This document shows, piece after piece, positions 22,088 to 50,114 of a stretch of DNA of 64,000 bases (its first letter is position 1; each line of letters opens with the position of its first letter). Below the pieces are notes generated by a model that was not told the origin of the DNA, ran no database searches, and saw only the letters and a program-made list of their open reading frames with translations. Position numbers and translations under genes: made by a program. The stretch lies in the IMG/VR virus record IMGVR_UViG_3300045988_184127, one strand, 5' to 3'. This DNA comes from a virus.

Positions 22088-23782
22088 GTGACAAAAAAGA
22101 ACATTTTCCCTGTGGTTGCAACCATTGCTGTGGTAGGCGTTGTTCTCGGCGTGTTTTCGACGACTGTGCTGCGCGACTCGAATGTCAGCATCAGCACGAT
22201 GACTTCCGAGCAGGCATATGCCAACTTGAGCAGCAAGATGAAGCGCATCGGCGTGCAGGAGGTCAAGGTCAATCCTCAGCAGCTGGATGTCTCTGAATTC
22301 CTTGATGCAAAGGATGAACTGCCCGACATTGAATCCTCCTACCCATTCGTGGTCGTAGGAAACGGAGATGTGAACATCGAAATCTTTTCCTCTGGCGAGA
22401 AAGCAGCAGAGTCCGGCTCAGATTCTTTCCTGACCGAAATGGCAAAGAAGTTCAACGCCCAGCACAACAAGACTTCCGGAGACAAGACTATGAGTGTCTC
22501 CCTGCGCTCCATTCCGTCCGGTACGGCGGCTGAGTACATCTCGACGGGAAAGTATCAGCCCGAGTGCTATACCCCCTCAAATACGCTCTTTGGCGAGCTG
22601 GTGAAGAACGAGGGCGTAGAATTGACCGTTGAGGCTGACCGTCTGGTCGGCAATGTGGCGGGTATTCTCGTATCAAAGAAGACAGGGGATATGCTTCGCT
22701 CTGAATACGGTGAAGCTTCTGTTTCTTCCGTTCTGAACGCAACCATCGATGGCAAACTCATGATGGGATACTCGAACCCCTACACAAGTGCTACGGGTCT
22801 TAATTTTCTGCTTGAGGCTCTTGCGAGCAGCGGCAGCGATACGATTGTCGATACGGCTGCTGTTGAGAATTTCCAGAAATTTCAAGCGAACGTCCCTCTC
22901 GTATCCTTCACGACCCAGCAGATGGTCCAGTCGGCAGACAAGGGCATCGTGGACGGCGTTGTCATGGAGTATCAGTCTTATCAGAATGACCCGACCTTAC
23001 AGCGCAACTACGAGTTCATCCCGTTCGGTGTACGGCACGATAATCCTCTGTATTCCATCGGGAATGTCTCTGCGGAGAAGAAGGAAGTTATTGCTGCCTT
23101 CGTTTCCTTCTGCGCTCAGAACCAGGCAGAGGCGACCAAGGACGGATTCAATGGTCTTGACGACTATGCTTATACAGGCAAGGCATACGACGGCAACACC
23201 ATCGCACAGGCTCAGAGTGTCTGGAAAGAAGAGAAGGATTCCGGTATTCCTATTGTGGCAGAGTTCGTTGTCGATACTTCCGGCTCAATGCGCGGCGAAC
23301 CCCTGAATGCCCTGAAAACCGCGATGATAAACACCATCCAGTATATCAATGACGACAACTATATCGGCATCATTGGCTTTGATTCAGATGTCAGGGAATA
23401 CCTGCCCATTGACCAGTTCTCTCTGACCCAGAAAACTCTGTATAAGGGTGCCGTGAACTCCCTCGATGCGAACGGCAGCACCGCAATGTACAACGGTCTT
23501 TGCGTTGCTATGGACCGCATCTACCAGAAATCTCAGGAACTGGGTGGGAATTGCACGCCCATCATCTTTGTGCTCACGGACGGTGACAACAATACCGGAT
23601 ATGGATTCTCCGATACGAAGAACATCATTGCCGGTATGGATATCCCCATTTACACCATCAGCTACAACTACGCAGCGGATAGTCTTTCGGAGCTCGCTTC
23701 CATCAACGAAGCGGCAGCTATCGTCGGCAACAGCGAGGATATCACCTACAAGCTCCGCAACCTGTTTAACGCAGAGATGTAA
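22088..23782 (+). CDS. membrane-anchored von Willebrand factor type A (vWA) domain protein
   Basis: GTG start after AAGGAG RBS; N-terminal TM; C-terminal MIDAS motif VVDTSGSMRGEP...NGSTAMYNGL...TDGDNN. Confidence 0.7.
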   Translation: MTKKNIFPVVATIAVVGVVLGVFSTTVLRDSNVSISTMTSEQAYANLSSKMKRIGVQEVKVNPQQLDVSEFLDAKDELPDIESSYPFVVVGNGDVNIEIFSSGEKAAESGSDSFLTEMAKKFNAQHNKTSGDKTMSVSLRSIPSGTAAEYISTGKYQPECYTPSNTLFGELVKNEGVELTVEADRLVGNVAGILVSKKTGDMLRSEYGEASVSSVLNATIDGKLMMGYSNPYTSATGLNFLLEALASSGSDTIVDTAAVENFQKFQANVPLVSFTTQQMVQSADKGIVDGVVMEYQSYQNDPTLQRNYEFIPFGVRHDNPLYSIGNVSAEKKEVIAAFVSFCAQNQAEATKDGFNGLDDYAYTGKAYDGNTIAQAQSVWKEEKDSGIPIVAEFVVDTSGSMRGEPLNALKTAMINTIQYINDDNYIGIIGFDSDVREYLPIDQFSLTQKTLYKGAVNSLDANGSTAMYNGLCVAMDRIYQKSQELGGNCTPIIFVLTDGDNNTGYGFSDTKNIIAGMDIPIYTISYNYAADSLSELASINEAAAIVGNSEDITYKLRNLFNAEM

Positions 23783-23901
23783 CTCAAAAGCGCGGTTTTG
23801 TCCGCGCAGCTGCTCCAAAAGACAGCCTCCACGCGGCGAGCAGCGGGCAACGGGAGACAGTTCCGGCAAATTGTCTTTGAGACGGAAGGAGGAAGTGCCC
23901 T

Positions 23902-24291
23902 ATGCGAGTACAACAGGTTCCGAACTCACCCTATTTCATCCATTACGACGATGAGGGCTTTTGCTGTATATCCAAAAGCAGAGAAAGCCAAGAACCTATC
24001 CCGGAATCTGAGATGCAAGCGTTCCTTGATGCAGTAGCCAATGGCCTGCTTTATATCGAAAAGGAACGAAAGAGCAGATACCAGCGCATCGACGAGGCCG
24101 AAAAAGCAGCTTTTGCCAAAGGCGAAGCGAAAGGTAGGGAGGATGAGCTCCTTTCCACGGTTAGAGAACTGAAAGAAGTACAAGCGTCAAGAGCAGAGTA
24201 TGAGCGCAAGCTGCAATATGAAGTATATGCTCATCATACTTCGCACACCACGAAAACCGAGTGGGTTCGCCTTGGTCGTGGAGGATGGTGA
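23902..24291 (+). CDS. hypothetical protein
   Basis: 129 aa ORF with AGGAGGAAG RBS. Confidence 0.4.
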   Translation: MRVQQVPNSPYFIHYDDEGFCCISKSRESQEPIPESEMQAFLDAVANGLLYIEKERKSRYQRIDEAEKAAFAKGEAKGREDELLSTVRELKEVQASRAEYERKLQYEVYAHHTSHTTKTEWVRLGRGGW

Positions 24292-24557
24292 TTGACATGA
24301 TGGGAAGCATTCCGATTCCGAATACAAGATTTTATCTGACCAGCATCGATGGAAAAAAGTGGTTCGTAACAGAATACTACAGAACCGCACCATTTAACCC
24401 CGACAAAGAGACCTATGACTTGTACAAGGAGTTTGCGGAAGCATTCAGAAAGAACGAGATGGAGGAACAGGAGTTTCAGGAGGAGCTCAAAAAGGCCGTC
24501 AATAAAGCTTACGGAAACGGCTTATACGCCGGACGGCATAGTATTGATTTCGGCTGA
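24261..24557 (+). CDS. hypothetical protein
   Basis: 98 aa ORF overlapping previous stop; start uncertain. Confidence 0.3.
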   Translation: MGSPWSWRMVIDMMGSIPIPNTRFYLTSIDGKKWFVTEYYRTAPFNPDKETYDLYKEFAEAFRKNEMEEQEFQEELKKAVNKAYGNGLYAGRHSIDFG

Positions 24558-24603
24558 ACCGAACAAGAAAAGAAAAACGGCACAGGAAAGCGGCAGAACG
24601 AAT

Positions 24604-24849
24604 ATGAGCATAGCAAAAATCGAAACTGCATCAGGCGTAACGCTGCTTCTCAACGGCAAAACAGTTTTCGCCTCAGATGATACCTCATACTGGATGCAGG
24701 GGTCTAAAATCATCGACGAAAACGGTTGGATTTGTGGTAACGCCGAGACTATCCGAGATGCCCTGTGCATAGTCTTGGCAAAGTACGGCGGGCTAAAGGG
24801 AAACAGCGCAAGACAAACAAAACCAATAAAGGCGGTGAGAGCATGGTAG
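24604..24849 (+). CDS. small protein, tandem paralog 1 of 3
   Basis: MSIAKIETASGVTLLLNGKTVFASDDTSYW...; shares S/TGV-hydrophobic-NG-KT/S-W...G pattern with next two ORFs. Confidence 0.45.
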   Translation: MSIAKIETASGVTLLLNGKTVFASDDTSYWMQGSKIIDENGWICGNAETIRDALCIVLAKYGGLKGNSARQTKPIKAVRAW

Positions 24850-25034
24850 TATATACGAAATCAGGCGTGACGGTGAATTGCTGCAGTAATCTCTTCATTG
24901 CATCGGACGGCAAAACCTACAACCTCTGCGGCAGGATGCTGACATGCAGTGGCAAGGTCATTAGCTGCAACTGTCAGTCAAAAGAAGAAGCGCTGGGTAC
25001 GGTCGTGGGGCTGTACGGCGGTCGAAGATTCTAG
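24843..25034 (+). CDS. small protein, tandem paralog 2 of 3
   Basis: MVVYTKSGVTVNCCSNLFIASDGKTYNLCGRML...LYGGRRF. Confidence 0.45.
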   Translation: MVVYTKSGVTVNCCSNLFIASDGKTYNLCGRMLTCSGKVISCNCQSKEEALGTVVGLYGGRRF

Positions 25035-25045
25035 GGAGGTACAAT

Positions 25046-25255
25046 ATGCAAACGGTCATGACGAACAGCGGCGTCGAGCTGCGTGTTGAGAGCAACATCA
25101 TTTACACAACCGATTCGAAGGCATTCTGGCGCAGCGGGAACATGCTGGTCGGAAACGGTACGGTCATCAGCTACCAGTGCCGCTCGATGGATGAGGCGGT
25201 CGATATGGTTGCCGCCTTGTACAATGGCAGAAAAACCGAAGCAGCGCAAGCATAA
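25046..25255 (+). CDS. small protein, tandem paralog 3 of 3
   Basis: MQTVMTNSGVELRVESNIIYTTDSKAFWRSGNMLVGNG...ALYNGRK. Confidence 0.45.
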   Translation: MQTVMTNSGVELRVESNIIYTTDSKAFWRSGNMLVGNGTVISYQCRSMDEAVDMVAALYNGRKTEAAQA

Positions 25256-25274
25256 CCATCCTGCAAAAATATAT

Positions 25275-25310
25275 GCCGTTCACCTTTTTGGGTGGACGGC
25301 TTTTTGTTTT
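25275..25310 (+). terminator. rho-independent terminator
   Basis: gccgttcacctttttgggtggacggc + tttttgtttt. Confidence 0.6.
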
Positions 25311-25343
25311 GTGAATACAGCGATTCAGTGGCGAAGCGAGCCG

Positions 25344-25398: not shown

Positions 25399-25405
25399 CG
25401 GGCAG

Positions 25406-25778: not shown

Positions 25779-27377
25779 ATGGCACGAAGGAAAGCAAACG
25801 ACTTGGAAAATCAGATGTCGCTCATGGACATGATGGCATCGGAAAGCCCCGAATACACCGAGGAAGGTCCGGAAGAACTCTTGGACCCCGGCGAGGACAT
25901 GGGGGACAGTGAAGGGCAGACGGATAAGCCATTCAAACTCGTGGCGAACAAGACCACGAAGGGAAAGGCGAGCATCTCCACGCAGGCGCTGAGTGTTGTG
26001 AAGGCGATATATGCTGATACGGTCGAAACGAATTGGGAAGAGTTGTTTGACGGGTTCGACAGACTCTATGCTATCACTTTTTCGTCCGGAATCGAGTTCG
26101 TGAATAAGGTCATCAACAAGTTCTCGTATGCGGAAGTCGTGTTCGGATGCGAGAAAATCATCGCCACCGACATCGCTGCCATCATGTCGGTGCAAATCGA
26201 CAGCGTGCAGCAGCTCGCTAAGTCTAAGTCGGCAGGAAACCTTGCGAACCGCCTCGATGACGGGTCCTTACAACTGTATGTATCGCGGGACACGAAATCG
26301 CACGAGAAAATCTTCATCTTGGAGAGCGCTGACCGTAAGCGGGTCCGAGTCATCACTGGCAGTGCGAATATGTCGGCATCGGCGTTTTGCGGCATCCAGC
26401 GAGAGAATATCGTTTGCTTCGATGACGAGGCGGCATTTTCGCATTATAAGGCTCTGTTCGAGACCTTCAAGGAGACCTGCTCCGACAACGTTTCGTATAA
26501 GGCAGTCGTGAACACCATGAATCAGGAAGATTATCTGAAAGAGAACATCAAAGAAGTGCCCGTCTTCCAATCCATTGAAAAGCAGAAGCTTATCTTTTTG
26601 GAACAGGCGCAACCTGAGGACGAGGTAGAATACGAGATAGTCGCCGATGTCAAGAAGATGCAGGAGCTCGTCAAGCCGATTATGCCTAAGATGCCGGTAC
26701 AGGCGAATCGTATTGTGGTGGCAGCGGAACCGATGCGCGTTTTTACAAAAAGGTATACAGAAGTTCGTCGTGTGGCGGCTGAGGCAGTTAAGCAGCTTCC
26801 GAAACTGCATATCGACTATGATGCCGGGACCATGACCTTCAACGACGAGAATATCGACCTCAATCCGAATCTCAGCGAGGTGGCAAAGAACATCAAGAGC
26901 ATCCAAAAGTTCTTCTCAGGCATGGACTACTTTTACGGCGATGTCGAGCAAGCTAAAAAAGACTACTTTAAGTACATGACCTGGTATCTGGCTACTCCGT
27001 TCATGGCATATCTACGGTATTTTGCATCGAGGAACAACTACGATACCAAGCTGTTCCCGATGTATGGCGTTATATACGGCGACTCAAATGGCGGCAAGAC
27101 GACCTTTATCAAGTTCCTTGTCAAACTCATGTGCGGGGAGACCGTAAAGATGAACACAACGGAGGATTTTACAGCCACAAGAATCGATGGTCTCAAACGA
27201 GTTTGCGAGGGACTGCCGCTGAATATCGACGACCTCGCCAAGACCGTTCCTTCCGAGTTGAGAATAAAGCAATCGTGCTTGTCCTTTGCAACATCGATAC
27301 CAACAAAAATCATTTCTTTTTACCTCCGGCGTTTTATTTTACAGTGCTGCTTAGAGCCACACCTCTTTGCTATGTAA
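25779..27377 (+). CDS. PLD-like (HKD motif) nuclease domain + C-terminal P-loop NTPase protein, apparently C-terminally truncated
   Basis: SHEKIFILESADRKRVRVITGSANMS resembles HxK..D..GSxN phospholipase-D nuclease motif; YGDSNGGKTTFIKFL Walker A and LPLNIDDL Walker B ~90 aa before stop (SF3/VirE-like geometry but too short). Confidence 0.45.
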   Translation: MARRKANDLENQMSLMDMMASESPEYTEEGPEELLDPGEDMGDSEGQTDKPFKLVANKTTKGKASISTQALSVVKAIYADTVETNWEELFDGFDRLYAITFSSGIEFVNKVINKFSYAEVVFGCEKIIATDIAAIMSVQIDSVQQLAKSKSAGNLANRLDDGSLQLYVSRDTKSHEKIFILESADRKRVRVITGSANMSASAFCGIQRENIVCFDDEAAFSHYKALFETFKETCSDNVSYKAVVNTMNQEDYLKENIKEVPVFQSIEKQKLIFLEQAQPEDEVEYEIVADVKKMQELVKPIMPKMPVQANRIVVAAEPMRVFTKRYTEVRRVAAEAVKQLPKLHIDYDAGTMTFNDENIDLNPNLSEVAKNIKSIQKFFSGMDYFYGDVEQAKKDYFKYMTWYLATPFMAYLRYFASRNNYDTKLFPMYGVIYGDSNGGKTTFIKFLVKLMCGETVKMNTTEDFTATRIDGLKRVCEGLPLNIDDLAKTVPSELRIKQSCLSFATSIPTKIISFYLRRFILQCCLEPHLFAM

Positions 27378-27379
27378 CC

Positions 27380-27571
27380 TCGTTCTATATAAACCGTCTG
27401 GCGGTATCTAACTGATTAACACTAAAAACAAAGAGCCGTGGTTGGAGCCTTTCCGAAACCGTCTTGCGGTAGGAGGTTTAAACCAATCCACAGCACCTTG
27501 TCTATTGTAGCATTTTGTCCTTGGAGAGGGACTTTAATAACTACTACTTTATAATACGAGGAGTATCTTGC
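27380..27571 (+). ncRNA. candidate omega-RNA region for IscB
   Basis: ~190-nt non-coding stretch immediately upstream of iscB containing imperfect repeats accgtctggcggta / accgtcttgcggta; omega-RNAs are known to lie 5-prime of iscB. Confidence 0.3.
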
Positions 27572-28924
27572 ATGAGCACTTGCGTTTGTGTTCTCAGCAA
27601 CAGTGGTGAACGCTTAATGCCTACCATCCGTCTTGGCAAGGTACGCCGACTCTTGAAAGACGGAAAAGCAAAAATCGTTAAGCATCATCCTTTTACTATT
27701 CAACTGCTGTATGACAGCAAAACGAACACACAACCCATCGAAATCTGCGAAGACGTGGGCTACAACTACATCGGCATCAGCGTAAAAAGCGAATCCCACG
27801 AATATGTGTCTGCCCAGTATGATACATTACAGGATGAGAAAGCCTGCCACGACAGTTGTCGTAAGTTGCGCCGAACCCGCAGAAATAGACTGCGCTACCG
27901 TAAACCGCGCTTCGATAACCGCAAGCGCGGCGAAGGTTGGCTTGCTCCTTCTTTGAGGCATAAGAAAGAACTCAATGTCAACGTTGTCAAGATGTATTGT
28001 GCAGTAATGCCCATTACTCATGCAACGGTTGAGGTTGGTTCTTTTGATACGATGCTTGTAAAAGCAATTCAGGAGGGAAAAGCCATTCCTGAGGGAGCAG
28101 ACTACCAGAAAGGTCCCCGCTACAACTTGGCAACTTCGCGTGAGGCAGTGTTCTACCGTGATAATTACACCTGCCAAGTTTGTGGACGCAAAGTTGCGGA
28201 TGGTGCCATTTTACATATGCACCACATGTTCTACTGGAAAGGAAGACACGGCGACAGCCTGAACGAACTTCTAACGGTATGCGAAAAGTGCCATACACCT
28301 GCCAATCACCAAAAAAGCGGTAAGCTTTATGGCTTCGGAGAAAATGTAAAGTTTGCCGACCTTTCCGGTGCGGCTTTTATGAACACCGTTAGGTGGCAAA
28401 TTGTCAATGAACTCTACGCTGCTTTTGGAAAAGATTTTGTCACCATCACTTATGGCGCAATGACAAAAGAAAAGCGCATTGCGCTTCAACTTGAGAAAAC
28501 CCACAGCAATGATGCGTATGCAATGGGCGAGTTTCATCCAAACTGCCGCTGTACGTTTGAACATTATGAAAAGGTAAGGCGTAATAATCGCATCCTTGAA
28601 AAGTTTTATGATTCTCGCTACATTGACATTCGTACAGGAGAAATAGCTACTGGAAAAGAACTCTTCAACGGTAGAATTAACCGTAACCACAAAAAGGATT
28701 CGGAAAATTTGCACAGATACCGTGGCAAGAGGACATACGCAGGGCATCGCGCTCTATTACGCAAAAAGGTAAACCTTAATCCGGGTGATTTAGTCTCTCT
28801 CAACGGAGAAGTTCTCGTTGTGCATAGCACTCATACCAATAAAAAGGGTGCTGTAAATGTAGAATTCAAAACACCCGGAAAAGCGGTCAAAAATCTGCAA
28901 GCCTTAAAAAACTTAAAATTGTAA
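27572..28924 (+). CDS. iscB: IscB OMEGA RNA-guided nuclease (PLMP-RuvC-bridge helix-HNH-RuvC-TID)
   Basis: N-terminal SGERLMPTIRLGKVRRLLKDGKAKIVKHHPFTIQL (PLMP domain), ICEDVGYNYIGISV (RuvC-I), RKLRRTRRNRLRYRKPRFDNRKRGEGWLAPS (Arg-rich bridge helix), CQVCG...LHMHHM...CEKCH (HNH), HSNDAYAMG (RuvC-III). Confidence 0.8.
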   Translation: MSTCVCVLSNSGERLMPTIRLGKVRRLLKDGKAKIVKHHPFTIQLLYDSKTNTQPIEICEDVGYNYIGISVKSESHEYVSAQYDTLQDEKACHDSCRKLRRTRRNRLRYRKPRFDNRKRGEGWLAPSLRHKKELNVNVVKMYCAVMPITHATVEVGSFDTMLVKAIQEGKAIPEGADYQKGPRYNLATSREAVFYRDNYTCQVCGRKVADGAILHMHHMFYWKGRHGDSLNELLTVCEKCHTPANHQKSGKLYGFGENVKFADLSGAAFMNTVRWQIVNELYAAFGKDFVTITYGAMTKEKRIALQLEKTHSNDAYAMGEFHPNCRCTFEHYEKVRRNNRILEKFYDSRYIDIRTGEIATGKELFNGRINRNHKKDSENLHRYRGKRTYAGHRALLRKKVNLNPGDLVSLNGEVLVVHSTHTNKKGAVNVEFKTPGKAVKNLQALKNLKL

Positions 28925-29737: not shown

Positions 29738-29770
29738 CTCCGATAACTGGTATTCACAGACAATATCATG

Positions 29771-29837: not shown

Positions 29838-30434
29838 ATGAGCTATGAACCCATTATCACACCGGGCAGGAATTTCTTTCTTGTCTCGACGGAGTACAAA
29901 GAGAGCTGCTCTGCCTGGTGCCGCAAGCAAATTAGAGCGACACTGAGGACCTGTCAGGGACGAGTCATCATCATTGATGCAACGGGCGAGTACGCGGACT
30001 TGGCGCTTGAACATGACAGATTGATTCGAGAGAAAATCCCGTCCATCATTTATCGGTATAAGCTGGTGGACGGGAAACCGTATATTGCTCATGTCATTGA
30101 AGTTGATACGGAAGCAAATGAAGCACCGCACCTGATTGTATACGATATCAGCCGGACCATAATCACCAGCTGGAAGGTCGGCGTAGAGGCAATTGATAAA
30201 ATCCTGCAATCCTATGCCGTGATGCGGGACAGTGAAATCGCGTGGTTGTATGTTCCGCTGGACTTATATACCAATGTCAAGCCTGAAACCGAATCCTGGA
30301 ACATTCTGGAACGAACTATCAAGGGTAATGAAGGCAAGCTCATGACAGTACTGACGACTCGCAAATTCACCATTGGGATGGTCCAGCGCTGTTTGCATAT
30401 GACAAAAAATAAACTTTTGGAGGATAGCAAATGA
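29838..30434 (+). CDS. hypothetical protein
   Basis: 198 aa ORF 40 nt downstream of P4. Confidence 0.4.
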   Translation: MSYEPIITPGRNFFLVSTEYKESCSAWCRKQIRATLRTCQGRVIIIDATGEYADLALEHDRLIREKIPSIIYRYKLVDGKPYIAHVIEVDTEANEAPHLIVYDISRTIITSWKVGVEAIDKILQSYAVMRDSEIAWLYVPLDLYTNVKPETESWNILERTIKGNEGKLMTVLTTRKFTIGMVQRCLHMTKNKLLEDSK

Positions 30435-31318
30435 CCAATGAACAGCTGAGAATCGCATTGACGGCGAATGCCGTTACCAAACAAACCCGAAACCATTTTG
30501 GATTCAGTGACCCGTGTGGAAAAACGCTAGAAGAATACAACAAGTCCGCGATGCTGTGCTGCATGACAGCGGCGCAGAGAATGAACACGCCGGGTTTTGA
30601 GCGTGTTTTGGCTGCGCAGATTTTTCCCTGCTTTACCATTGGCTGCTGGAATCAGACGAAGACGGTCTATGATTTTGACTACGAGTTTCAGAAAATGCTG
30701 ATGGATACGGATGACGTGGCAATTCATCAGGATATCCTGCAGCGACTCCCGGTTCGTGATTTCTTTATCCCGGTGTATGACAGCTACGACTACAACGGTA
30801 TGTTCGTGCATGTGGAATTCGACGAAAAAGAGAAAACCACAGCTTTCGGTATCGTTCTTGTCGGCCCCACTAAGGGCAGCCACGATGATTTCACGTTCCT
30901 GACTCTGCCTGCCTGGGCCAAAGAAAACCAGAGTTTGACGGAAGCAACCCGGAGTACGAAAGAATACCTGGAAAAGGCAGCAGGGCAGCGGCAAGTAAAT
31001 GGTATCAGCGTACCGGCTGTGATGGAAGCAGTTCCTTCGGTCTTTGACGGCGGCACACCTTATGTCCGGCTGGCAATCCTGTGCGCCAACTATCTTGCCA
31101 GCAAGAACCCAGATGTCCGCCTTGAAACTTCCAAAAAGCGTGACCGCCCGGTATTCGTGTTTCAGGGAAAGGCACAGCGAATCAACGTCAAGACATATAC
31201 CGTTGGTGAGAATGCGGCCAAAGAATACAAAAAGAATGGGGAAGGCAAAACCCCCCGCTGGCGGCATTACTGGTGCGGCAATGGCCGGGAACGCCGGGAA
31301 TGCAAGTTTATTTACTGA
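30431..31318 (+). CDS. hypothetical protein
   Basis: 295 aa ORF, 4-nt overlap with upstream gene. Confidence 0.4.
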   Translation: MTNEQLRIALTANAVTKQTRNHFGFSDPCGKTLEEYNKSAMLCCMTAAQRMNTPGFERVLAAQIFPCFTIGCWNQTKTVYDFDYEFQKMLMDTDDVAIHQDILQRLPVRDFFIPVYDSYDYNGMFVHVEFDEKEKTTAFGIVLVGPTKGSHDDFTFLTLPAWAKENQSLTEATRSTKEYLEKAAGQRQVNGISVPAVMEAVPSVFDGGTPYVRLAILCANYLASKNPDVRLETSKKRDRPVFVFQGKAQRINVKTYTVGENAAKEYKKNGEGKTPRWRHYWCGNGRERRECKFIY

Positions 31319-36051: not shown

Positions 36052-36504
36052 ATGATTCGATTCAGAAAAGATACCCCTCGCTACTGGTTTATGAGTAACT
36101 ATTATTCTTGCGAATTTGTGATGAATGGGATTCGTTACAAGAATGCCGAAGCAGCGTTTCAGAGCCACAAGGTTCCGCTGGAAGAGCGCAAACAATTTTC
36201 AGACATGCCTCCGGCAACGGCTAAGCATTTTGGCCGTCATGTGGCTTTCCCTGCCAACTGGGACGAAACCCGGGACGATGTAATGCGCCGCGTGGTGATG
36301 GCTAAATTCGAACAGAATAAAGACCTCAAGCAGCGTCTCCTCGAAACGGGAACGCAGCCAATCGAGGAAGATACCACCAGTTGGCACGATAACTACTGGG
36401 GAAACTGCCATTGCCCGAAATGCCGGAACATCCCGGGTCAGAACCGGCTTGGGATTATTCTGATGGAAACGAGGGACAAGCTAAAAAAACAAACGAGTAA
36501 ATAA
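36052..36504 (+). CDS. NADAR-domain protein (YbiA-like, DUF1768; ADP-ribose/NAD-processing hydrolase family)
   Basis: FSNYY..C.F..NG..Y...E..FQ..K......RK.F.......AK..GR......W.......M...V.AKF.QN..L...LL.TG...IEE....D.YWG pattern of NADAR domain. Confidence 0.7.
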   Translation: MIRFRKDTPRYWFMSNYYSCEFVMNGIRYKNAEAAFQSHKVPLEERKQFSDMPPATAKHFGRHVAFPANWDETRDDVMRRVVMAKFEQNKDLKQRLLETGTQPIEEDTTSWHDNYWGNCHCPKCRNIPGQNRLGIILMETRDKLKKQTSK

Positions 36505-40732: not shown

Positions 40733-40737
40733 TAGCA

Positions 40738-41910: not shown

Positions 41911-41970
41911 TTGACATGCTATCAGCAACAAAATACTGCTCGTCCATTTGAATATGGGCAGCAATTTTTG

Positions 41971-41998
41971 TTGCAAAACCGTGCGAATTGAAGATAAT
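41971..41998 (+). promoter_or_regulatory. conserved-module promoter P9
   Basis: TTGCAA-16 nt (aaCCGTGCGAATTGaa)-GATAAT. Confidence 0.55.
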
Positions 41999-42003
41999 GA
42001 AAA

Positions 42004-42434: not shown

Positions 42435-43121
42435 ATGATTGAGCAGAAAGACAGTGAAATTTTGGAGCTCGCGGGGTTTGCAGACCGGAACAGAAAGGCC
42501 AGGGAGGTTCATTCAGAGCCTATTTTCGTACAGGTGAACAGCAAGCTGGCAGCCTACACGATACCAGGAATGCGTTCGGAAGGAACGACCTATGATGTTC
42601 CGACTTACTCGGCACTGAAAGGTGCAATGGATTCCATCTACAAACATGTCGGTATGGAAGCGATTCCGACGGCGGTGTACATTCACTCTCCTATAAAAAA
42701 GACACGTATCCTGCTGCGAAATATTGAGAACATCGAAGGAATGCGCTCCCGCGAATGCTTAACGGATGTTTGCTACACGGTCGTTGTACGAATCGTAAGA
42801 ATGGATAACATGGCTTTAGAAAGCGACCTCACAGTGCAGTACAGGAATTTCTTAGAGTATGCTTCCGACAGCTGTGGGATGGGATATCCGTATCTTGGCG
42901 TGATGGAAACACCCATGTATTTCCATCCTGTAACGGAAGCTGAAATCCTTCCGACGCTGCCCATCACATCTGATTTGTGCAACATGCCTCTGACGCCGGA
43001 TTATACGAACAAATTTGAACCGGATTTGGTTTGCAGGCATCTTCGCATCGAGAATGGTGTCATCGATTTTACGAAGGGGGAGTATTTTCGCTGCTATGGA
43101 TATTCTGAATGCGCTGGTTAA
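42435..43121 (+). CDS. cas5c: Cas5c (Cas5d) type I-C Cascade subunit / pre-crRNA endoribonuclease
   Basis: FVQVNSKLAAYTIPGMRSEGTTYDVPTYSALKGAMDSIY matches Cas5d N-terminal signature (..yAlF..P......Y.vPTysALKG..esIY); 228 aa; overlaps cas8c start. Confidence 0.8.
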   Translation: MIEQKDSEILELAGFADRNRKAREVHSEPIFVQVNSKLAAYTIPGMRSEGTTYDVPTYSALKGAMDSIYKHVGMEAIPTAVYIHSPIKKTRILLRNIENIEGMRSRECLTDVCYTVVVRIVRMDNMALESDLTVQYRNFLEYASDSCGMGYPYLGVMETPMYFHPVTEAEILPTLPITSDLCNMPLTPDYTNKFEPDLVCRHLRIENGVIDFTKGEYFRCYGYSECAG

Positions 43122-45042
43122 GCACTATGATGCGATGGCAGCAGCTGGAAATGCAACGCCTTTCGGCTGGACACACAAGTTTGCTCAATATGCCGTCGAA
43201 CTAAACGATGACGGAGAAATCGATAGGATTTTCGCTCTCGGTGATTTATCCGATAAAAAGAACAAAGGCGAGGAATTCAAGATGCCAACACGCAGGCCAC
43301 GGTCTGGCAAGCTGCCGATTCCGTATGTGTTCTGTGATGATGCGGAACATCTTCTCGGCAAAGTCGGTGAAGCGAGCAATCTTGTTCGATACACTATGAT
43401 GCGCGACGCAGTCTTTATGCTGCGTGACCTGTTGGGACATTCTAAAGCCTTAGATGTCGTCTACAAGTTCTACGAAACGTGGGACCCAGAAAAGGCGCTT
43501 GACAATAAATGTGTCAGCGACGTAATGGAGGCGAAAGGCCAGGAAAAGAAAACCTTTATCCTGTTCTACAATGGCGTTCCAGTTTTTGATGATGAGACAT
43601 TTCGCAAAAGCTATGCGGCGATTGTCAATAAATATGGGGAAATGCCGATTGATACACTCAAGGGCGGTGAAATTGCTCTGTTGCCGGAACCTATCAAGAT
43701 TCGAAGCATGATAAGCGGCAATATCGGGTTTAAGGCTCGCTTGTTTCGAGCCATCACGGCATGGGGAAACAAAAAGAATGGCCCTGTCACAAACACTCTT
43801 TTGTCCAACAACAAAGCAAACACCGAGTATTTCGGACGTCAGCAGGGCAACGCCATCCCCATCACAATGCAAGATGAACATAAGATTTACGAAGCGGCTA
43901 CAGATTTGCTCGGCTCCAAACATCGGTTTCCGGTTCCGGCCACTTCACAGTCTCTTTATTCAAAGAATCAAATTATCTGGTCGGATGATATGCCAACAAA
44001 GCTGGAAGACGCGGTCATTGACCTATGCTGTTGCCGCAGTGATAAAGCTAAAACTATCTCTCAGGCAAATGAATCAGGTTCTGAAACCACTATCAGAATC
44101 CTTGAAAAAACAAAACTCTATCAGGGACGAATCACGGTTCTTTCGGACATTGAAAAGAACTTAGTCGTCAACGTCTGGAATCTTGATATGAATAATAAGG
44201 GATGTTCTGCATCCAGCTTTACGCAGATGACGCTTGACGAGCTGCTTGGAAACTTTGCCAAGCATTACACTGACATGGAAATTGACCGAAGCCAGACTTG
44301 CCGAGATGCGGATGGAACCAGCCGAGATTTTGCAAGAGCCATCAACATCTACAACTCACTTTTCGCCAAAAACAGTGATGGAAGCACGAGTTCTTTCAAC
44401 AACGCTCTTTGGAAACAACTGAGTATCAGCATTTATTCCGGAACAAAGTATCCGGAGCAAGTCCTTTCCCTGGCACTGCTTCGGTCCTGCCGTTTGCTTC
44501 AGCAAAATAAGAAAGGCAAAGAAAATCGCATCACGGCGTCTTTGGCCGGTATCACAAAAGCGTTCTTAATTCGCAATTACGGAGAGAATATGACGATGGG
44601 ACTCAACTCAAACAACACCAGCCCTGCTTATATCACAGGACGAATCTTCGCACATATGGAAAGTGCGCAGAGAAAGATTGACCCCAACAACCAAACCACT
44701 TACGCTAAACGGTTCTTTGAGCGAGTTATGATGAACCCGGCCAAAACCATGCCGGAACTTCACAAGAGTTTCCTTCTTTTGAAGAACAAGGCTAAAGCAA
44801 ATGGCATGAGAGGTCTTTATAATTCCAGCGACAAGAAAATTATGGCTCTTATCGATATGCTGGATGGCAACTATCCCGACCATCTATCCGAAAAGCAAAA
44901 AGGTGAATATCTCGTCGGATACTATCAGCAGCGAAGCGCAAACATCAAGGATGCCGAGGAGAAGAAAAACCGGAAAGCCGCCAAAATTGAAACTAATAAT
45001 ACGGATACTGCGACAACCGTTGCAACACAAAAGGAGAAGTAA
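43096..45042 (+). CDS. cas8c: Cas8c (Csd1) type I-C Cascade large subunit
   Basis: N-terminus MDILNALVKHYDAMAAAG...GWTHKF...VELNDDGEI...MPTRRPRSGKLPIPYVFCDDAEHLLG matches Csd1 family pattern (M.L.aL..yYdrl...vP.R..RTsg..p.flcD...Y.LG); ~648 aa; position between cas5c and cas7c. Confidence 0.8.
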   Translation: MDILNALVKHYDAMAAAGNATPFGWTHKFAQYAVELNDDGEIDRIFALGDLSDKKNKGEEFKMPTRRPRSGKLPIPYVFCDDAEHLLGKVGEASNLVRYTMMRDAVFMLRDLLGHSKALDVVYKFYETWDPEKALDNKCVSDVMEAKGQEKKTFILFYNGVPVFDDETFRKSYAAIVNKYGEMPIDTLKGGEIALLPEPIKIRSMISGNIGFKARLFRAITAWGNKKNGPVTNTLLSNNKANTEYFGRQQGNAIPITMQDEHKIYEAATDLLGSKHRFPVPATSQSLYSKNQIIWSDDMPTKLEDAVIDLCCCRSDKAKTISQANESGSETTIRILEKTKLYQGRITVLSDIEKNLVVNVWNLDMNNKGCSASSFTQMTLDELLGNFAKHYTDMEIDRSQTCRDADGTSRDFARAINIYNSLFAKNSDGSTSSFNNALWKQLSISIYSGTKYPEQVLSLALLRSCRLLQQNKKGKENRITASLAGITKAFLIRNYGENMTMGLNSNNTSPAYITGRIFAHMESAQRKIDPNNQTTYAKRFFERVMMNPAKTMPELHKSFLLLKNKAKANGMRGLYNSSDKKIMALIDMLDGNYPDHLSEKQKGEYLVGYYQQRSANIKDAEEKKNRKAAKIETNNTDTATTVATQKEK

Positions 45043-45044
45043 CA

Positions 45045-46007
45045 ATGTCTGAACTCGTTAAGAATCCTATCACCATTGTTCTAGCGTTTGATGCGCAGAA
45101 CTGTAATCCCAATGGGGACCCCGACAACGACAACAACCCGCGTCAGTTTGAGGATGGAATCGGGTACATGTCGTCCGAAAGCATCAAATATAAGATTCGC
45201 AGCTACATCCGTGACAAGGTCTTGTTTGACGGTCTGGAAAAGAACAGCCATGCACTATATTGCAGCCCCGATACTTTTTCCATTGAGCGCAGCGTTAAAG
45301 AGTGCCTGGAGCCTATCATCGGCAAAAAAACCAAAGGCATCCCCGATGACCAGCAGCTGGAGGCTTATAAGGAGCTGTGCCGGTACTACTATGATACTCG
45401 CATGTTTGGGCTTGTGAATACGAGTTATTCCAACTGCAGCCTTCTCAGCCGCATCAAGGGTGCCTGCCAGGTATCTATGCCGATGTCCTATGACCCTATC
45501 GAAATCATCCCGATGACGATTACTCGCTGCTGCGTTGCTTCCGATGCTGAACGCAAAGGCGAAGATAAAGGCGCCAAGAAGGGCGTCAGTATCGACGAAA
45601 GCGACGATGGAGCCGAAAAGAAGACGAAAGACCGCATGATAGGCCGTCGAAGCATTATCAGATATGGGCTGTATCACATGAGCATTCAAATCAACAGTGC
45701 AATGGCACAGCGTAACGGTGTTACGATGGATGACGTTAATTTGTTGATTGATGCGCTGCAGCATATGTTCGAGGAAGATATGAGCTCCAGCAGAGCCCTA
45801 ACGCTGCGTAAGTTGTTTGTCGTTGAACACACCAAACCGATGGGAAATGCTTATCGGGACACCATTGAGCGGGCACTGGCGGCTCGACTGAAGCAACCTA
45901 ATGATGCACCTACATCTTATGAGGATTACGAGGTGACTTATCACCGCGAAATGCTGCCTGATGAGGTCAAGGTGACTGAGTATAATTATAACAGTCAAAG
46001 CGTTTGA
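45045..46007 (+). CDS. cas7c: Cas7c (Csd2) type I-C Cascade backbone subunit
   Basis: ITIVLAFDAQNCNPNGDPDNDNNPRQFEDGIGYMSSESIKYKIRSYIRD = hallmark Csd2/Cas7 N-terminal motif (nsNPNGDP...N.PR.d..tG.g..s..s.KrkiR); 320 aa. Confidence 0.85.
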   Translation: MSELVKNPITIVLAFDAQNCNPNGDPDNDNNPRQFEDGIGYMSSESIKYKIRSYIRDKVLFDGLEKNSHALYCSPDTFSIERSVKECLEPIIGKKTKGIPDDQQLEAYKELCRYYYDTRMFGLVNTSYSNCSLLSRIKGACQVSMPMSYDPIEIIPMTITRCCVASDAERKGEDKGAKKGVSIDESDDGAEKKTKDRMIGRRSIIRYGLYHMSIQINSAMAQRNGVTMDDVNLLIDALQHMFEEDMSSSRALTLRKLFVVEHTKPMGNAYRDTIERALAARLKQPNDAPTSYEDYEVTYHREMLPDEVKVTEYNYNSQSV

Positions 46008-46110
46008 CAAAAACTAATAATTGCTGGTCAACAAAACTGTATAAGATTGAAAACACAATAGTCTGCCTCTTGTTAATACGTTGCAAGTGAGAACCTGCGG
46101 GACTACAAAA

Positions 46111-46140
46111 GTGATGCACTATGCCACATATGATTGAAAC
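46111..46140 (+). repeat. degenerate type I-C CRISPR repeat-like sequence ending in canonical GATTGAAAC
   Basis: GTGATGCACTATGCCACATATGATTGAAAC; compare I-C consensus GTCGCACTCTTCATGGGTGCGTGGATTGAAAT. Confidence 0.35.
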
Positions 46141-46220
46141 GATATTTTGCTATGGTGCGGAAATGCAGCGGCTGCAGGTAACACAACTGCCGTAAGAAAG
46201 GCTACAAAGCGGCCCATGAG

Positions 46221-46251
46221 GTCGCGTAAGATTATGCGCCCATCTGCAAAC
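46221..46251 (+). repeat. degenerate type I-C CRISPR repeat-like sequence
   Basis: GTCGCGTAAGATTATGCGCCCATCTGCAAAC; shares GTCGCG...GCGC...AAAC frame with I-C repeats (GTCGCGCCCCGCACGGGCGCGTGGATTGAAAC) and the 12-mer GCGTAAGATTAT with 42128. Confidence 0.35.
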
Positions 46252-46304
46252 GCGGGTGGACGTTCTTTTTTTGCCAAAAATAAAAATAAAACGTGATAAA
46301 AACC

Positions 46305-46332
46305 TTGCACATCTGTGCGAATCAGATATAAT
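46305..46332 (+). promoter_or_regulatory. conserved-module promoter P11
   Basis: TTGCAC-16 nt (atCTGTGCGAATCAga)-TATAAT. Confidence 0.55.
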
Positions 46333-46415
46333 AACCCTAATAAGATAAGAATTATGCCCTGACGGCATCTGAATTGGATGCTGCCGGGGCATTTTTGTTG
46401 TTAGGAGATATAGCT

Positions 46416-49136
46416 ATGACGCTGAACGACTTGTCAAGCGAACAACAGGAATTCGTACATTTGGCATTGTCGGGAAAAAACGTATTGTGTGACGCCTGCA
46501 TTGGCAGCGGAAAGACATCGACCATCAACGTGCTCTGTGATGCGTACCCTCCAGAACGGCGTATCCTGTACTTGACCTATAACCGATTACTCAAACTTGA
46601 CGCCAAAGACAAAATCAAAAATCATAATGTCTTGGTCCAGAACTATCACGGATTTGCAAGCCTGCTGCTGAACAAAAAGGGAATCCGAAATTGCGGGCAG
46701 GGTGAACAGCTCGCTATGGTATTGGAAAAGAAAATTCCGATTCCGCCGATTGATACTCTTATCATTGACGAGTATCAGGATATCAATGACGAGATTGCGG
46801 AACTACTCAAATATATCCGTTCTCAGAATCCGAGCCTTCAAATCGTCGCAGTGGGCGATATGAAGCAGAAAATCTACGATGATACAGCGTTGGATGTCTG
46901 GACATTCATGCAGGATTTCCTCGGCCGCCATGAACAAGTGATTTTCACAAAGTGTTTCCGTATTTCCCATGACTTGGCAGAACGGCTTGGCAATATCTGG
47001 GGGAAGACCATCGACGGCGTAAATAGCTCCTGTATCGTGGAACAGATGTCGGTCGATGAAGTGATAGAGTTCCTGAATAAGCAGAACCCCAAAAATGTCC
47101 TTTGCCTGGGTGCTCGAATTGGAGCCATGACGAAGGTGCTCAACGACTTGGAAAATCGACCGGGGAACCTCTATGACAAGCATCATGTCTATGCAAGTAT
47201 CGCAGACAATGATGGGAATAAGGCAGTAGCACCCTCCTCGGATGTTGGTATCTTCACGACTTTTGACGGCAGCAAAGGTATGGAGCGGCCTATCTGCGTT
47301 GTGTTTGATTTCACGGAAGAATACTGGTCGTCTCGCACAAGCAAACCGATGGCACGATATGAGATTCTTCGAAATTTGTTTTGTGTCGCAGCAAGCCGTG
47401 GAAAGCAGCGAATCATTTTCGTAAACTCAGACCATCCGTTGAGCGATAAATCTCTGATGACCCCAACTGAAACTCTTCGCGGATTTCCGCATCCGTTCGC
47501 ATTCTCTGAGATGTTTGACCATAAATTCATCGAGGATGTAGATGCCTGCTATAAGCTGTTGGAAGTCGCACCGATTGAACGTAATGATACCACGTCCATT
47601 GATATCCAGACGGCAGATGCAATGATTGATTTGTCTCCCTGCATCAGCATCTACATGCAGGCAGGATTCTTTAATTCCTACGATATAGATGACGCACTTG
47701 CGTATTACATGGACCTGCATAAAGACATGCAGTATTTGAAAATCAAGAAGGGTGCAACGGTCGAGGATAAGGTTCTACTGCTCACAGCACTCGAAACGAA
47801 TCAGTGCAGGTATGTAAAACAGGTCAAGCCTCCTTTTGTGAACGCAAAAGCCAAAATGTCGCTCAGTATGCGGCTTGGAACCGTGTTCACTCCCGATGAA
47901 TATGTTCAGGCACGTGGCGATATCGACATTCATACTAAGGACCATAAAGTAATTTATACCTCGGGCCTTGCGGATGTCGTAAAGAATAATACCGTCTACT
48001 GCATCAAGTTTATCAGCAGCCTGGCACATAAGCATTTTCTGCAGTGTGCGTGTTCCATGATGGCATTGGGGTTGCCGTATGGCGTTGTCTGGAACGTCAA
48101 AAGTAACCTGATGTACAGCGTAAAAATCAAGGATATAGACGCTCTGATTGACGCAATTACCAAGTGCATTACGAAACGGGTTTATGATAGCGCAGATGAC
48201 TACACCTGCAGGAAAGGTTTTGTACAGGATACCGCGTCGATTATCGACCGATGGACTGACGACGGATATGCGGAAGAGCCCACCACTATCACTTCCGGCG
48301 ACGGTATTGCCATCATCAAGCAAGGAAGCCGCTATTTTGTGATGGACGGAGCACGTCGAAACACCCTGAACGATAATTTCGGGATGGGCTTTGCCGATGT
48401 AAAAGATGCTTGCCTTGCTTATGCAAAGAGTTGTGAACTCCAGAAAATCGTGGACCATGATTCTCCTTATTCCGAAGTCGAATTCTGGCTCGACCAGAAC
48501 AAGGCGTTTGAGGAATACATGACGCAAGTAAGCCATGAAATCGAACAGCACAAGGAAGGACCGTATGCAAAGTATAAGTCTTTCGCTGCTCCCGCTGTCC
48601 GAAAGATGCTGGCCGAAAAGGGACTGACCATCATGTTCCCGGAAAAGGTCCTCATCAAGGTCTGGAAGATGCGCCGTGTCGAAGATGCCATGTATCAGAA
48701 AATTGAAGAAGCAAAGAAGCAGAACAGCTCCAATGTACCGCTTGATGAGGCGTTCTTTGACTCTGAACTGGTGGATTCCGTTGAGGGAAGCATCGAAAGC
48801 GCCAAGGCAAAATCCAAGCCCAAAAAGGAATCCGCATTACCGTTTTCCAAGTACTGCGCAGATGAGAAGAAGAGCTATCGTGTCGTGAAAAGCGATGAAC
48901 TCTCAAAGCCCAACCAGCCCCGTTATGTTGTGGTCGAGACCGCTACTGATAAGGTCCTGGACAATGCTAACGGATATGGCTACCTTTCCTATCAGGCTGC
49001 CTGGAAAGGGTATTCGTACAAGAGCAAGCATCATCTGGACGGCACGAAGAAACCGATAAGTAAGAGTGCAAAAGAGCAGGCAAAGAAAAAGGCGGCTTTC
49101 TTTTCGACTGACTCAGAGCAGCTCAGCTTTGGCTGA
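46416..49136 (+). CDS. UvrD/Rep-like SF1 helicase core (N-terminal ~370 aa) fused to ~540-aa uncharacterised C-terminal region
   Basis: LNDLSSEQQEFV...VLCDACIGSGKTSTI (Walker A / motif I), LIIDEYQDIND (motif II DExQD), FTTFDGSKGMERPICVV (motif V/VI-like); start at MTLNDLS with AGGAGA RBS; C-terminal part has weak GDIDIH...K nuclease-like stretch (unverified). Confidence 0.7.
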   Translation: MTLNDLSSEQQEFVHLALSGKNVLCDACIGSGKTSTINVLCDAYPPERRILYLTYNRLLKLDAKDKIKNHNVLVQNYHGFASLLLNKKGIRNCGQGEQLAMVLEKKIPIPPIDTLIIDEYQDINDEIAELLKYIRSQNPSLQIVAVGDMKQKIYDDTALDVWTFMQDFLGRHEQVIFTKCFRISHDLAERLGNIWGKTIDGVNSSCIVEQMSVDEVIEFLNKQNPKNVLCLGARIGAMTKVLNDLENRPGNLYDKHHVYASIADNDGNKAVAPSSDVGIFTTFDGSKGMERPICVVFDFTEEYWSSRTSKPMARYEILRNLFCVAASRGKQRIIFVNSDHPLSDKSLMTPTETLRGFPHPFAFSEMFDHKFIEDVDACYKLLEVAPIERNDTTSIDIQTADAMIDLSPCISIYMQAGFFNSYDIDDALAYYMDLHKDMQYLKIKKGATVEDKVLLLTALETNQCRYVKQVKPPFVNAKAKMSLSMRLGTVFTPDEYVQARGDIDIHTKDHKVIYTSGLADVVKNNTVYCIKFISSLAHKHFLQCACSMMALGLPYGVVWNVKSNLMYSVKIKDIDALIDAITKCITKRVYDSADDYTCRKGFVQDTASIIDRWTDDGYAEEPTTITSGDGIAIIKQGSRYFVMDGARRNTLNDNFGMGFADVKDACLAYAKSCELQKIVDHDSPYSEVEFWLDQNKAFEEYMTQVSHEIEQHKEGPYAKYKSFAAPAVRKMLAEKGLTIMFPEKVLIKVWKMRRVEDAMYQKIEEAKKQNSSNVPLDEAFFDSELVDSVEGSIESAKAKSKPKKESALPFSKYCADEKKSYRVVKSDELSKPNQPRYVVVETATDKVLDNANGYGYLSYQAAWKGYSYKSKHHLDGTKKPISKSAKEQAKKKAAFFSTDSEQLSFG

Positions 49137-49183
49137 TTCAGAAAATCAACAACAGATTTCACGATTAAAAGGAGGAAGAAATC

Positions 49184-49957
49184 ATGGCAGCCAAAAAGGA
49201 TAAGATGATTCCGTCTGAGAAAGAACGGAAAAGAGCACTGAAATATGCGACCCCGGCAGGTACGGGTCGGATGTGGGTAGCAATGGGAATCGCCTTTATA
49301 ATTTTCGGCATTATCTTGCTGCTGATTCCAATTGGCCTTGTTATCTCGGAGGCATCAGCGCAGAGATACGACCCCGAAAGCATCCATACAGCAACACTTG
49401 TATTCTATCTGCTTGGCGCATTTTTTGGTTTCTGCGGATGTTTATGCGTTATCTTTGGTAAGCTTGCCGTCAAAGCATTTGCGAAAATACTGTGCAAGGG
49501 TGAAATTAACTATCCGGTAGCGGAATACAAAACACCTAAGAAACTGCTGCTTCAAGAGGCAGCAGCTATCAACCAGAGTCCTAATGCTCCATTGACAGCT
49601 TCCACATTCGGGAACTGGATTGATTTTGAAGCCGATTGGCAAAACTGCCTTTCCATTCATAATGGCATCTTGCAGAGTCATCAGATTTTCAAAAAACTGA
49701 TTCTTGTACAAGACAATTTTACTTACAAAGAGCTGGACTACGAGAATAACTCGGAGCTCGGCGTCGGAGTCAAAACATTCGCCGCAGGAAGCACAACGAC
49801 CATCGGCAAAATGAAAGGCCACAAGCTCATTTATAATATCGGCATGAATCTTTCCAATGGCAAACTGGGAGTTAACAGCTATTCCATCGATACATTGGAC
49901 GTTACGAATGAAGTACATAAATGGTTAGCTGACCACGGATACACCCGCACAGACTAA
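49184..49957 (+). CDS. membrane protein (2 TM) hypothetical
   Basis: 257 aa; two hydrophobic helices near N-terminus. Confidence 0.45.
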   Translation: MAAKKDKMIPSEKERKRALKYATPAGTGRMWVAMGIAFIIFGIILLLIPIGLVISEASAQRYDPESIHTATLVFYLLGAFFGFCGCLCVIFGKLAVKAFAKILCKGEINYPVAEYKTPKKLLLQEAAAINQSPNAPLTASTFGNWIDFEADWQNCLSIHNGILQSHQIFKKLILVQDNFTYKELDYENNSELGVGVKTFAAGSTTTIGKMKGHKLIYNIGMNLSNGKLGVNSYSIDTLDVTNEVHKWLADHGYTRTD

Positions 49958-49975
49958 GAAATAGCTTTGTTCGTT

Positions 49976-50114
49976 GTCGATACTTCCGGCTCGATGCGCG
50001 GAGAACCTATCAATGCACTGAAAACGGCCATGATTAACACCATCCAGTATATCAATGACGACAACTATATCGGCATCCTCGATGAGTTGCTGGATATTCT
50101 TAACGATAAATAAT
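49976..50114 (+). pseudogene. duplicated internal fragment of vWA gene (MIDAS region) - gene remnant
   Basis: ~113 nt ~88% identical to 23270-23385; in-frame translation FVVDTSGSMRGEPINALKTAMINTIQYINDDNYIGI then novel tail and stop; no start codon or RBS. Confidence 0.55.

Follow-up and report, generated by a model that had tools for sequence, protein, structure and literature searches.

A vWA gene fragment at a module junction of a mosaic gut element is probably a relic imported together with a neighbouring membrane-protein gene

In a DNA stretch of 64,000 nucleotides (IMG/VR virus record IMGVR_UViG_3300045988_184127; 'the window' below means this whole stretch) an internal piece of a vWA gene occurs twice: once inside the intact resident gene and once 26.7 kb further downstream, between a gene for a 257-aa predicted membrane protein and hsdM. 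Comparing the sequence with related contigs (labelled L followed by a number) and public protein matches (labelled P), we arrive at a history in which the downstream fragment would be a relic that was imported with the 257-aa gene, so that the two copies are paralogous by transfer and are not the two ends of one event. We put the probability of this overall history at about 0.8. The element itself is treated here as a large mobile element of gut Clostridia, either a conjugative plasmid or a phage.

A repeat search in the window gives a two-copy direct repeat of 109 nt (92% identical, start-to-start spacing 26,706 nt; see Table 1). Aligning the vWA segment to the window with blastn yields 100 of 109 identical positions (91.7%) in a gapless match at E = 1.3e-40, and all other matches within the window are just 11-17 nt long with E-values of at least 0.16, which is chance level. 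The 257-aa gene adjoins the fragment in the same way in 26 independent contigs, so the downstream copy is not an assembly artefact of the window; the duplication is real and far beyond chance. A preliminary description of this DNA had already reported a near-identical duplicate of an internal vWA-gene segment some 26.6 kb downstream, and this is confirmed. Its coordinates (23270-23385 and 49972-50087) indicate the right loci but lie a few bases out of register and extend the right end about 10-14 nt too far, as a consequence of which its identity estimate of approximately 88% was too low. The statement that the upstream copy lies inside the vWA gene and encodes its metal-ion-dependent adhesion site (MIDAS) is correct as well: the copy covers codons 392-428, including DTSGS.

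The two copies differ at nine positions, all within the first 66 nt, and the final 42 nt are identical. Seven differences are synonymous and the remaining two fall in one Ile/Leu codon. This is ordinary allelic variation between intact vWA genes and does not reflect decay after a local duplication.

An indication of origin comes from synteny. In three other lineages a 257- or 238-aa gene is followed, 1.7-4 kb further downstream and in the same orientation, by an intact 564-aa vWA gene. Named by protein length, the gene order is 238, 86, 95, 267, vWA in L024 and L029; 257, 194, 335, 264, 344, vWA in L031 and L032; and 257, 123, 141, 335, 264, 344, vWA in L042, the 257-aa protein of which is 94% identical to that of the window. 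L030 has a locus of the L031/L042 type with its own deletion running into the vWA gene. At the nucleotide level the 257-aa module of the window (49156-49963) is 84.5-93% identical to relatives in which it occupies other contexts (93.3% for L042), and its homology to L031 and L042 ends at 49963, 6 nt before the fragment. The fragment in turn is closest to the vWA alleles of L030 (98.2% identity, 107/109) and L042 (96.3%), followed by L031 (93.6%), the resident gene (91.7%) and L024 (88.9%); over their whole length the L042 and L030 vWA genes are merely 82-84% identical to the resident gene. Given this synteny and the affinity to the L030 and L042 alleles, the fragment and the 257-aa gene would share an origin in a locus that combines the 257-aa and vWA genes, and most likely they arrived together from a locus with the 257-aa gene upstream of vWA. 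The resident vWA gene occupies a conserved locus of its own, 26.7 kb upstream, and represents a different allele.

The receiving site was directly observed in four states among the relatives, which we tentatively arrange as a series A to B to C to D. State A (L037 and L038) consists of the UvrD-like helicase gene, 227 bp of intergenic DNA and the 288-aa gene, which is intact and contains a DGQHRL motif; both the 257-aa gene and the fragment are absent. State B, found in nine IMG/VR contigs, comprises the UvrD-like gene, the 257-aa gene, the fragment, 22 nt, and then the native undeleted intergenic region from the 13-mer TGGCTGATTCAGA onward, with a full-length 288-aa gene further downstream in L047 and L052. 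As a 13-nt direct repeat this 13-mer flanks the insert of approximately 0.95 kb in the cassette-free relatives (its right copy is lost in the window). State C (L021 and L022) equals state B minus 352 bp. The 288-aa gene has thereby lost its promoter, its start and some 86 codons at the 5' end, and what is left of it forms, together with the fragment and the intergenic region, a composite open reading frame (ORF) of 281/290 codons. State D is that of the window and its closest relatives: here blastn homology to L021 runs to 50100 and resumes at 56685, with 6,583 bp replacing 594 bp of L021. Residues 235-281 of P0076 match the window with 100% identity at 56686-56826 (tblastn), which is the surviving end of the 288-aa gene, and L044 displays a clean left cassette junction (GCGATTCTG followed by AACGATAAATAA).

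Two other readings of the sequence around the fragment were considered and rejected. The 22-nt tail might be taken for a diverged UvrD-like 3' end, but 1027 of 2000 shuffles score as well, and sharing is limited to the 13-mer TGGCTGATTCAGA and the intergenic region behind it. The fragment itself might be taken for the native 5' end of the 281-aa ORF of L021 and L022; native homologues, however, are 288 aa long and have another N-terminus with the DGQHRL motif, and the ORF results from the 352-bp deletion. An occurrence of the fragment within an intact, different gene had been named beforehand as an observation that would speak against a remnant. The 281/290-codon ORF seems at first sight to be such a case, but it is a secondary composite, and being the product of the deletion it does not refute the remnant reading.

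On these grounds the following history can be proposed. The native site would have contained the UvrD-like helicase gene, the 227-bp intergenic region and the 288-aa gene, and the donor locus the 257-aa gene 1.7-4 kb upstream of a 564-aa vWA gene, an arrangement that related elements have preserved. Through loss of about 5.15 kb (L042 10949-16101) vWA codon 392 would have been linked to the base 6 nt past the 257-aa stop, with GCTTT as filler, and a second illegitimate join may have cut the vWA gene after codon 428. The resulting block of some 0.95 kb (257-aa gene, 5-nt filler, 109 nt of mid-vWA sequence and 22 nt, with the 13-nt direct repeats as flanks) would then have been inserted just past the helicase stop. 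Later, in the lineage of the window, a 6.6 kb hsdM/hsdS cassette presumably took the place of the intergenic region and of five-sixths of the 288-aa gene, counted from its start. The two vWA copies form, as a side effect, a 109-nt direct repeat usable by homologous recombination.

Several points weigh against this history. Among the 26 contigs no relative carries a complete vWA gene, or half of one, immediately behind the 257-aa gene at the UvrD site, and with no such intermediate in the relatives we infer the order of the two deletions, as well as whether they preceded or followed transfer. The direction from A to B likewise follows from parsimony and the flanking 13-nt repeat, and not from a rooted phylogeny of the whole element. 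No source was found for the 22-nt tail after the fragment, the excess of non-synonymous changes described below is based on just eight variable sites, and the coverage of L040, which has a converted fragment, is only 1.55x. Finally, the relatives consist entirely of metagenomic contigs, several of which were built by k-mer assemblers. The preliminary description had also suggested that a second vWA gene once lay at this position. This can be followed in part, as the fragment and the 257-aa gene do trace back to a vWA locus. An intact second gene at ~49.9 kb, which it had proposed to look for, is present in none of the 26 contigs with the UvrD-257 arrangement, and a whole second gene need therefore never have existed there; intact vWA genes after a 257-aa gene are found only in other contexts, namely on the side of the type IV secretion system in L031, L032 and L042, and in L024/L029.

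The fragment itself appears to be a dead, non-functional relic of a vWA gene. It starts 12 nt past the TAA (49955-49957) of the 257-aa gene, and a terminator scan places an intrinsic-terminator-like hairpin with T-run (50125-50150) between it and the hsdM ATG at 50171. The homology covers part of a gene, both ends are cut off, translation signals of its own are lacking, constraint is relaxed and the unrearranged locus is without it. Over the 26 contigs nine fragment haplotypes occur, the variable sites of which are 3 synonymous to 5 non-synonymous, against 17 to 1 for intact vWA alleles over the same 108 nt (Fisher p = 0.0045). Among the substitutions that alter the protein are MIDAS Ser to Leu, Glu to Val, Ala to Thr and Asp to Tyr, and in some relatives the second MIDAS serine is lost from the fragment. 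The earlier call of a gene remnant is therefore borne out by the double truncation, the relaxed constraint and the absence of a Shine-Dalgarno sequence. Its accompanying claim that a start codon is missing was too strict: a TTG at 49967, 10 nt past the 257-aa stop and in the same frame, opens a 48-codon ORF (MFVVDTSGSMRGEPINALKTAMINTIQYINDDNYIGILDELLDILNDK), which one gene caller predicts in the relative L008, although sequence inspection revealed no Shine-Dalgarno-like sequence before this TTG or before the internal ATG.

This ORF raises the question whether the fragment has been retained for a function, as a translated micro-protein (48 codons, or 104-113 in cassette-free relatives) or as a leader or 3' untranslated region. 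The frame is open from a TTG so close to the 257-aa stop, and the segment is kept in 26/26 contigs of the clade irrespective of what follows downstream. Given that all carriers are close relatives (DNA identity of the 257-aa gene ~93% or more), such retention needs no selection. Moreover, the length and C-terminus of the fragment-containing ORF shift with each rearrangement (48, 104, 113 or 290 codons), its substitutions mainly change amino acids and hit the MIDAS serine, a Shine-Dalgarno sequence is lacking, and L037 and L038 do without the fragment. In Pfam the 48-codon peptide stays below threshold (25.5 bits against 27 for VWA_2 and 19.1 against 23.8 for VWA); it has 36 homologous residues compared to ~160 in the resident VWA match and hence no complete vWA fold. 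We regard retention for a function as most improbable. Because the 257-aa ORF and the fragment are in the same frame with one TAA between them, the 257-aa protein was also considered as the diverged N-terminal half of a vWA paralogue. BLASTP finds no similarity (best E 0.39), and the shared frame is consequently treated as chance.

A quite different possibility, raised in the preliminary description, is that the two copies are the ends of a single event, in which recombination between vWA paralogues brought in or rearranged the whole 26.7 kb block (phospholipase D (PLD) nuclease, IscB, helicase, NADAR, Cascade and UvrD-like gene) and left the fragment as a scar at the far end. Direct repeats indeed bracket the block, and contigs with a hybrid junction exist (L023 and L041). 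Rearrangement of the vWA module has taken place too, as the pair of the 267-aa and vWA genes directly follows the flotillin gene in the window and is located elsewhere in L024, and in L033 the flotillin gene has no vWA gene after it. Nonetheless, only the downstream copy coincides with a synteny break. The upstream copy lies ~0.4 kb from the end of an intact gene whose orthologues align uninterrupted on both sides, which excludes a junction at that position. The partner of the fragment is the 257-aa gene, in a block of ~0.95 kb within a locus that is otherwise collinear with relatives lacking this block, and no step in GC content is seen at either copy. The parts of the interval moreover come and go independently (IscB, the small genes after vWA, Cascade, TnpB and the 257-aa gene): the IscB gene is limited to the window, L011 and L015, and the small post-vWA genes vary among relatives. 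With the upstream copy away from any junction and the interval not inherited as a unit, the suggested acquisition or rearrangement by paralogue recombination is not supported. The region is heavily reshuffled, but not by an event that has the two copies as its ends, and we consider a single event very unlikely. A module boundary near the downstream copy, which the preliminary description also claimed, is upheld by four junctions (Table 1).

Whatever its origin, the repeat pair could be in active use today, with RecA-type recombination deleting the 26.7 kb defence/anti-defence block (which would leave a vWA protein of 439 aa) or homogenising the copies. Some contigs fit this expectation. P0063, from L023, is 439 aa long and exactly the predicted hybrid (vWA residues 1-392, the repeat, LDELLDILNDK and a stop), and an exact-junction scan of metagenome contigs adds two more contigs. 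L041, from another assembly, is a second hybrid that joins the 5' part of vWA to the tail; L040 has a fragment with resident-type bases at 9/9 positions in a 97.4%-identical background with the 257-aa flank kept, as after full conversion to the resident allele. On the other hand, L041 and L040 do not differ at all (100% identity) along 5,114 nt that start with the repeat's first base, as expected of an assembler taking the wrong branch at an exact repeat, and coverage is low for both (2.3x and 1.55x, respectively). L023 is just 2.3 kb long and stems from a Logan assembly, which we take to have been built with k = 31, and the copies share an exact stretch of 42 nt. Hybrids are absent from the rest of the P0063 cluster, the hybrid junction occurs in no IMG/VR contig whereas 14 have the normal one, and conversion is found in only 1/26 contigs. 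A deletion of 26.7 kb at the repeat is possible, and a cross-over during assembly is an adequate explanation; active use of the pair as such we hold to be very unlikely. It might be argued further that the relic is kept as a homology handle, allowing the element to shed the block (PLD nuclease, IscB, AcrVA2-like, NADAR, Cas3-less type I-C Cascade and UvrD-like helicase) recurrently or reversibly while truncating the vWA surface protein. If true, this would be a built-in switch between loaded and streamlined forms of the element within gut populations, yet we judge it highly improbable.

Table 1. Positions in the window of the vWA gene, the two repeat copies, the inserted block, the cassette and the module junctions.
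Feature	Position	Strand	Description and basis
Resident intact 564-aa vWA gene	22088..23782	+	N-terminal membrane anchor, large extracytoplasmic region, C-terminal vWA domain (translation, Pfam)
Repeat copy 1	23263..23371	+	vWA codons 392-428: first beta-strand, MIDAS DTSGS, first helix, QYINDDNYIG motif
TGGCTGATTCAGA, left copy of 13-nt direct repeat	49130..49142	+	Spans UvrD-like stop (49134-49136); alignment of L037, L021 and window
Module junction	49150	n/a	Left end of inserted block
Inserted block, left part	49150..49963	+	257-aa membrane-protein gene (49184-49957) and ribosome-binding site; blastn of L031, L042, L033; absent from L037/L038
5-nt filler GCTTT	49964..49968	+	Junction of 257-aa flank and vWA segment (junction alignment)
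Repeat copy 2	49969..50077	+	Putative vWA gene relic, 36 complete codons
Module junction	50077/50078	n/a	End of vWA homology
24-nt tail CTCGATGAGTTGCTGGATATTCTT	50078..50101	+	Common to cassette-free relatives; LDELLDIL in fragment frame
Module junction	50101/50102	n/a	Left end of swappable restriction-modification cassette
6.6 kb cassette	50102..56684	+	Hairpin 50125-50150, hsdM 50171-51991, hsdS 51978-53045, five more ORFs, bPH_2 gene 56069-56533 (blastn of L021, Pfam, terminator scan)
3' remnant of 288-aa gene	56685..56829	+	Last 47 codons and stop; gene intact in L037, L047, L052

The resident vWA protein matches Pfam VWA at 2.6e-15 over residues 393-552, its ~160 C-terminal residues (VWA and VWA_2 are both above threshold), and the exact protein is present on 35 blocks of public contigs. 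At 23809-23878 (+), 27 nt past the stop of its gene, we found a full-length match (58 bits, gathering score 44, E 4e-8) to Rfam RF02682, the hepatitis delta virus (HDV)-like self-cleaving ribozyme of Faecalibacterium prausnitzii. This ribozyme has been conserved among relatives (L042 16648-16720, L031 16553-16621, L030 14166-14236 and L033 451-519) and is linked to a downstream 129-aa gene, not to vWA: its upstream neighbour in L033 is the flotillin gene, and L030 has an insertion sequence (IS) element between it and vWA. That element is of the IS200 type (L030 11566-14141, immediately past the vWA stop) and is 83% identical to one of the window, where a gene for an IS200-type Y1 transposase and a 578-aa partner with a match to a PHROG transposase family occupy 7767-9909 (-).

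Dozens of contigs from human-gut metagenomes, several with a length of 140-165 kb, encode exact copies of the vWA and 257-aa proteins, and 14 IMG/VR contigs (25-183 kb) contain the 257|fragment junction. In related contigs the 257-aa and vWA genes have a VirB4/TraC-like ATPase and a sortase as neighbours. A megablast of 49100-50300 against the PLSDB plasmids and INPHARED phages gave no match, and a scan of GTDB representative genomes with the vWA protein gave only homologues of 41-52% identity from Clostridia, in Anaeromassilibacillus, Hespellia and a Clostridium sp. Scans with PHROGs and PADLOC do not decide between phage and plasmid.

Within the interval between the copies, an IscB-type gene (RRXRR and HNH domains) is located at 27515-28924 (+) in a region (25779-28924) where L012-L014 and L016-L020 carry a Mor-like helix-turn-helix gene instead. 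The PLD-nuclease gene upstream of it has a product of 532 aa both in the window and in L015, compared to 721 aa in all remaining relatives, which suggests a truncation. Further downstream, genes for type I-C Cas5, Cas8c and Cas7 (Pfam, PADLOC) are followed by the gene for the 920-aa UvrD/GajB-like helicase (together 42435-49136, +). The window contains no cas3, cas1 or cas2, and a search for a CRISPR array near the Cascade genes did not find one in the window. L037 and L038 have kept the helicase gene and lack the three cas genes as well as the 257-aa gene; in L007 and L009 a TnpB element separates cas7 from the UvrD-like gene. The flotillin gene (19312-19359), the 267-aa gene (21152-21254) and the cas genes (41966-42003) are all preceded by an intergenic motif of 40-100 nt that also matches intergenic DNA of L024 and L029; it might act as a promoter or regulatory element common to these genes, or else as a linker for recombination. 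Outside the interval there is a second direct repeat (13408-13498 and 14655-14745; 91 nt, 84%), in which two adjacent paralogues have their ribosome-binding site and the sequence for a lipoprotein signal peptide (MKKVVSLALS...LAAC).

Immediately downstream of the fragment, one and the same pair of flanks encloses differing cargo. The window, L001 and L003-L006 have hsdM/hsdS; L002, L007, L040 and L050 have an EcoRI-like methylase with GmrSD/HNH; and the site is empty in L043, L045-L049, L052, L053 and L055. It is thus a swappable hotspot for defence cassettes. The cassette of the window encodes hsdM and hsdS (50171-53045, +) with no recognisable hsdR, and the alternative cargo, for example at L002 10991-16375, an EcoRI-like methylase with GmrSD_N/HNH and HNH genes. 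Both are placed behind one common 69-nt leader with the terminator hairpin and a ribosome-binding site. In addition, the protein matches P0007-P0064 include dozens of single-member chimeras in which the first 40-230 residues of the 257-aa protein are fused to hsdM, bPH_2, the 288-aa gene, RlaP-like or other sequences, which reflects either frequent natural deletions around the locus or frequent misassembly. In the window, restriction-modification methylases are accompanied by genes for an AcrVA2-like protein (30431-31318), NADAR (36052-36504), an Apyc1-like metallo-beta-lactamase (58832-59992) and a UmuC-like Y-family polymerase (10261-11529), nearly all of them on one strand.

Taken alone the vWA fragment has little significance, but it is a well-resolved example of how short relics arise at the module junctions of a large mosaic gut element. 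It also illustrates how such a relic can mislead, having suggested that a whole island of 26.7 kb was moved by paralogue recombination. The real junctions are now fixed (49150, 49964-49968, 50077/50078, 50101/50102 and 56684/56685), and a swappable restriction-modification site has been identified. The 109-nt repeat also calls for caution, as it is likely to give rise to chimeric contigs when elements of this family are assembled from short reads.

Compared with known systems, the gene set with AcrVA2-like, NADAR, Apyc1-like and UmuC-like members resembles the anti-defence islands reported for plasmid leading regions (PMC11541004), even though the contigs are catalogued as viral in IMG/VR. Variable cargo at one pair of flanks (hsdM/hsdS, EcoRI-like methylase or empty) is a further likeness, both to these islands and to variable defence-cassette hotspots, as are the AcrVA2-like, NADAR and metallo-beta-lactamase neighbours and the orientation of nearly all neighbouring genes on one strand. 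The vWA fragment merely adjoins the hotspot, 24 nt upstream of its left edge, and stands outside both the cassette and the exchange mechanism. A chromosomal example of the RF02682 ribozyme is located upstream of glmM (PMC6765202), whereas the copy in the window has a different setting, at an operon junction of a mobile element. With RecA-dependent ectopic conversion and deletion between dispersed direct repeats the pair shares its dimensions (109 nt, 92% identity, an exact stretch of 42 nt), one converted contig and two contigs with a deletion junction. Here, however, the events are seen in contigs and not in reads, the deletion junctions are explicable as assembly errors, and there is no sign of a dedicated or programmed mechanism. 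The closest parallel is formed by the gene relics that illegitimate recombination leaves in the mosaic genomes of plasmids and phages: short stretches from inside a gene, with the frame kept and no start signal, at the junction of modules with differing histories, and with relaxed constraint, filler bases and short direct repeats. Nothing essential differs from these, and the vWA fragment is an ordinary by-product of mosaic evolution; particular to this case is the intact paralogue, a different allele 26.7 kb away, with which it makes up a long direct repeat.

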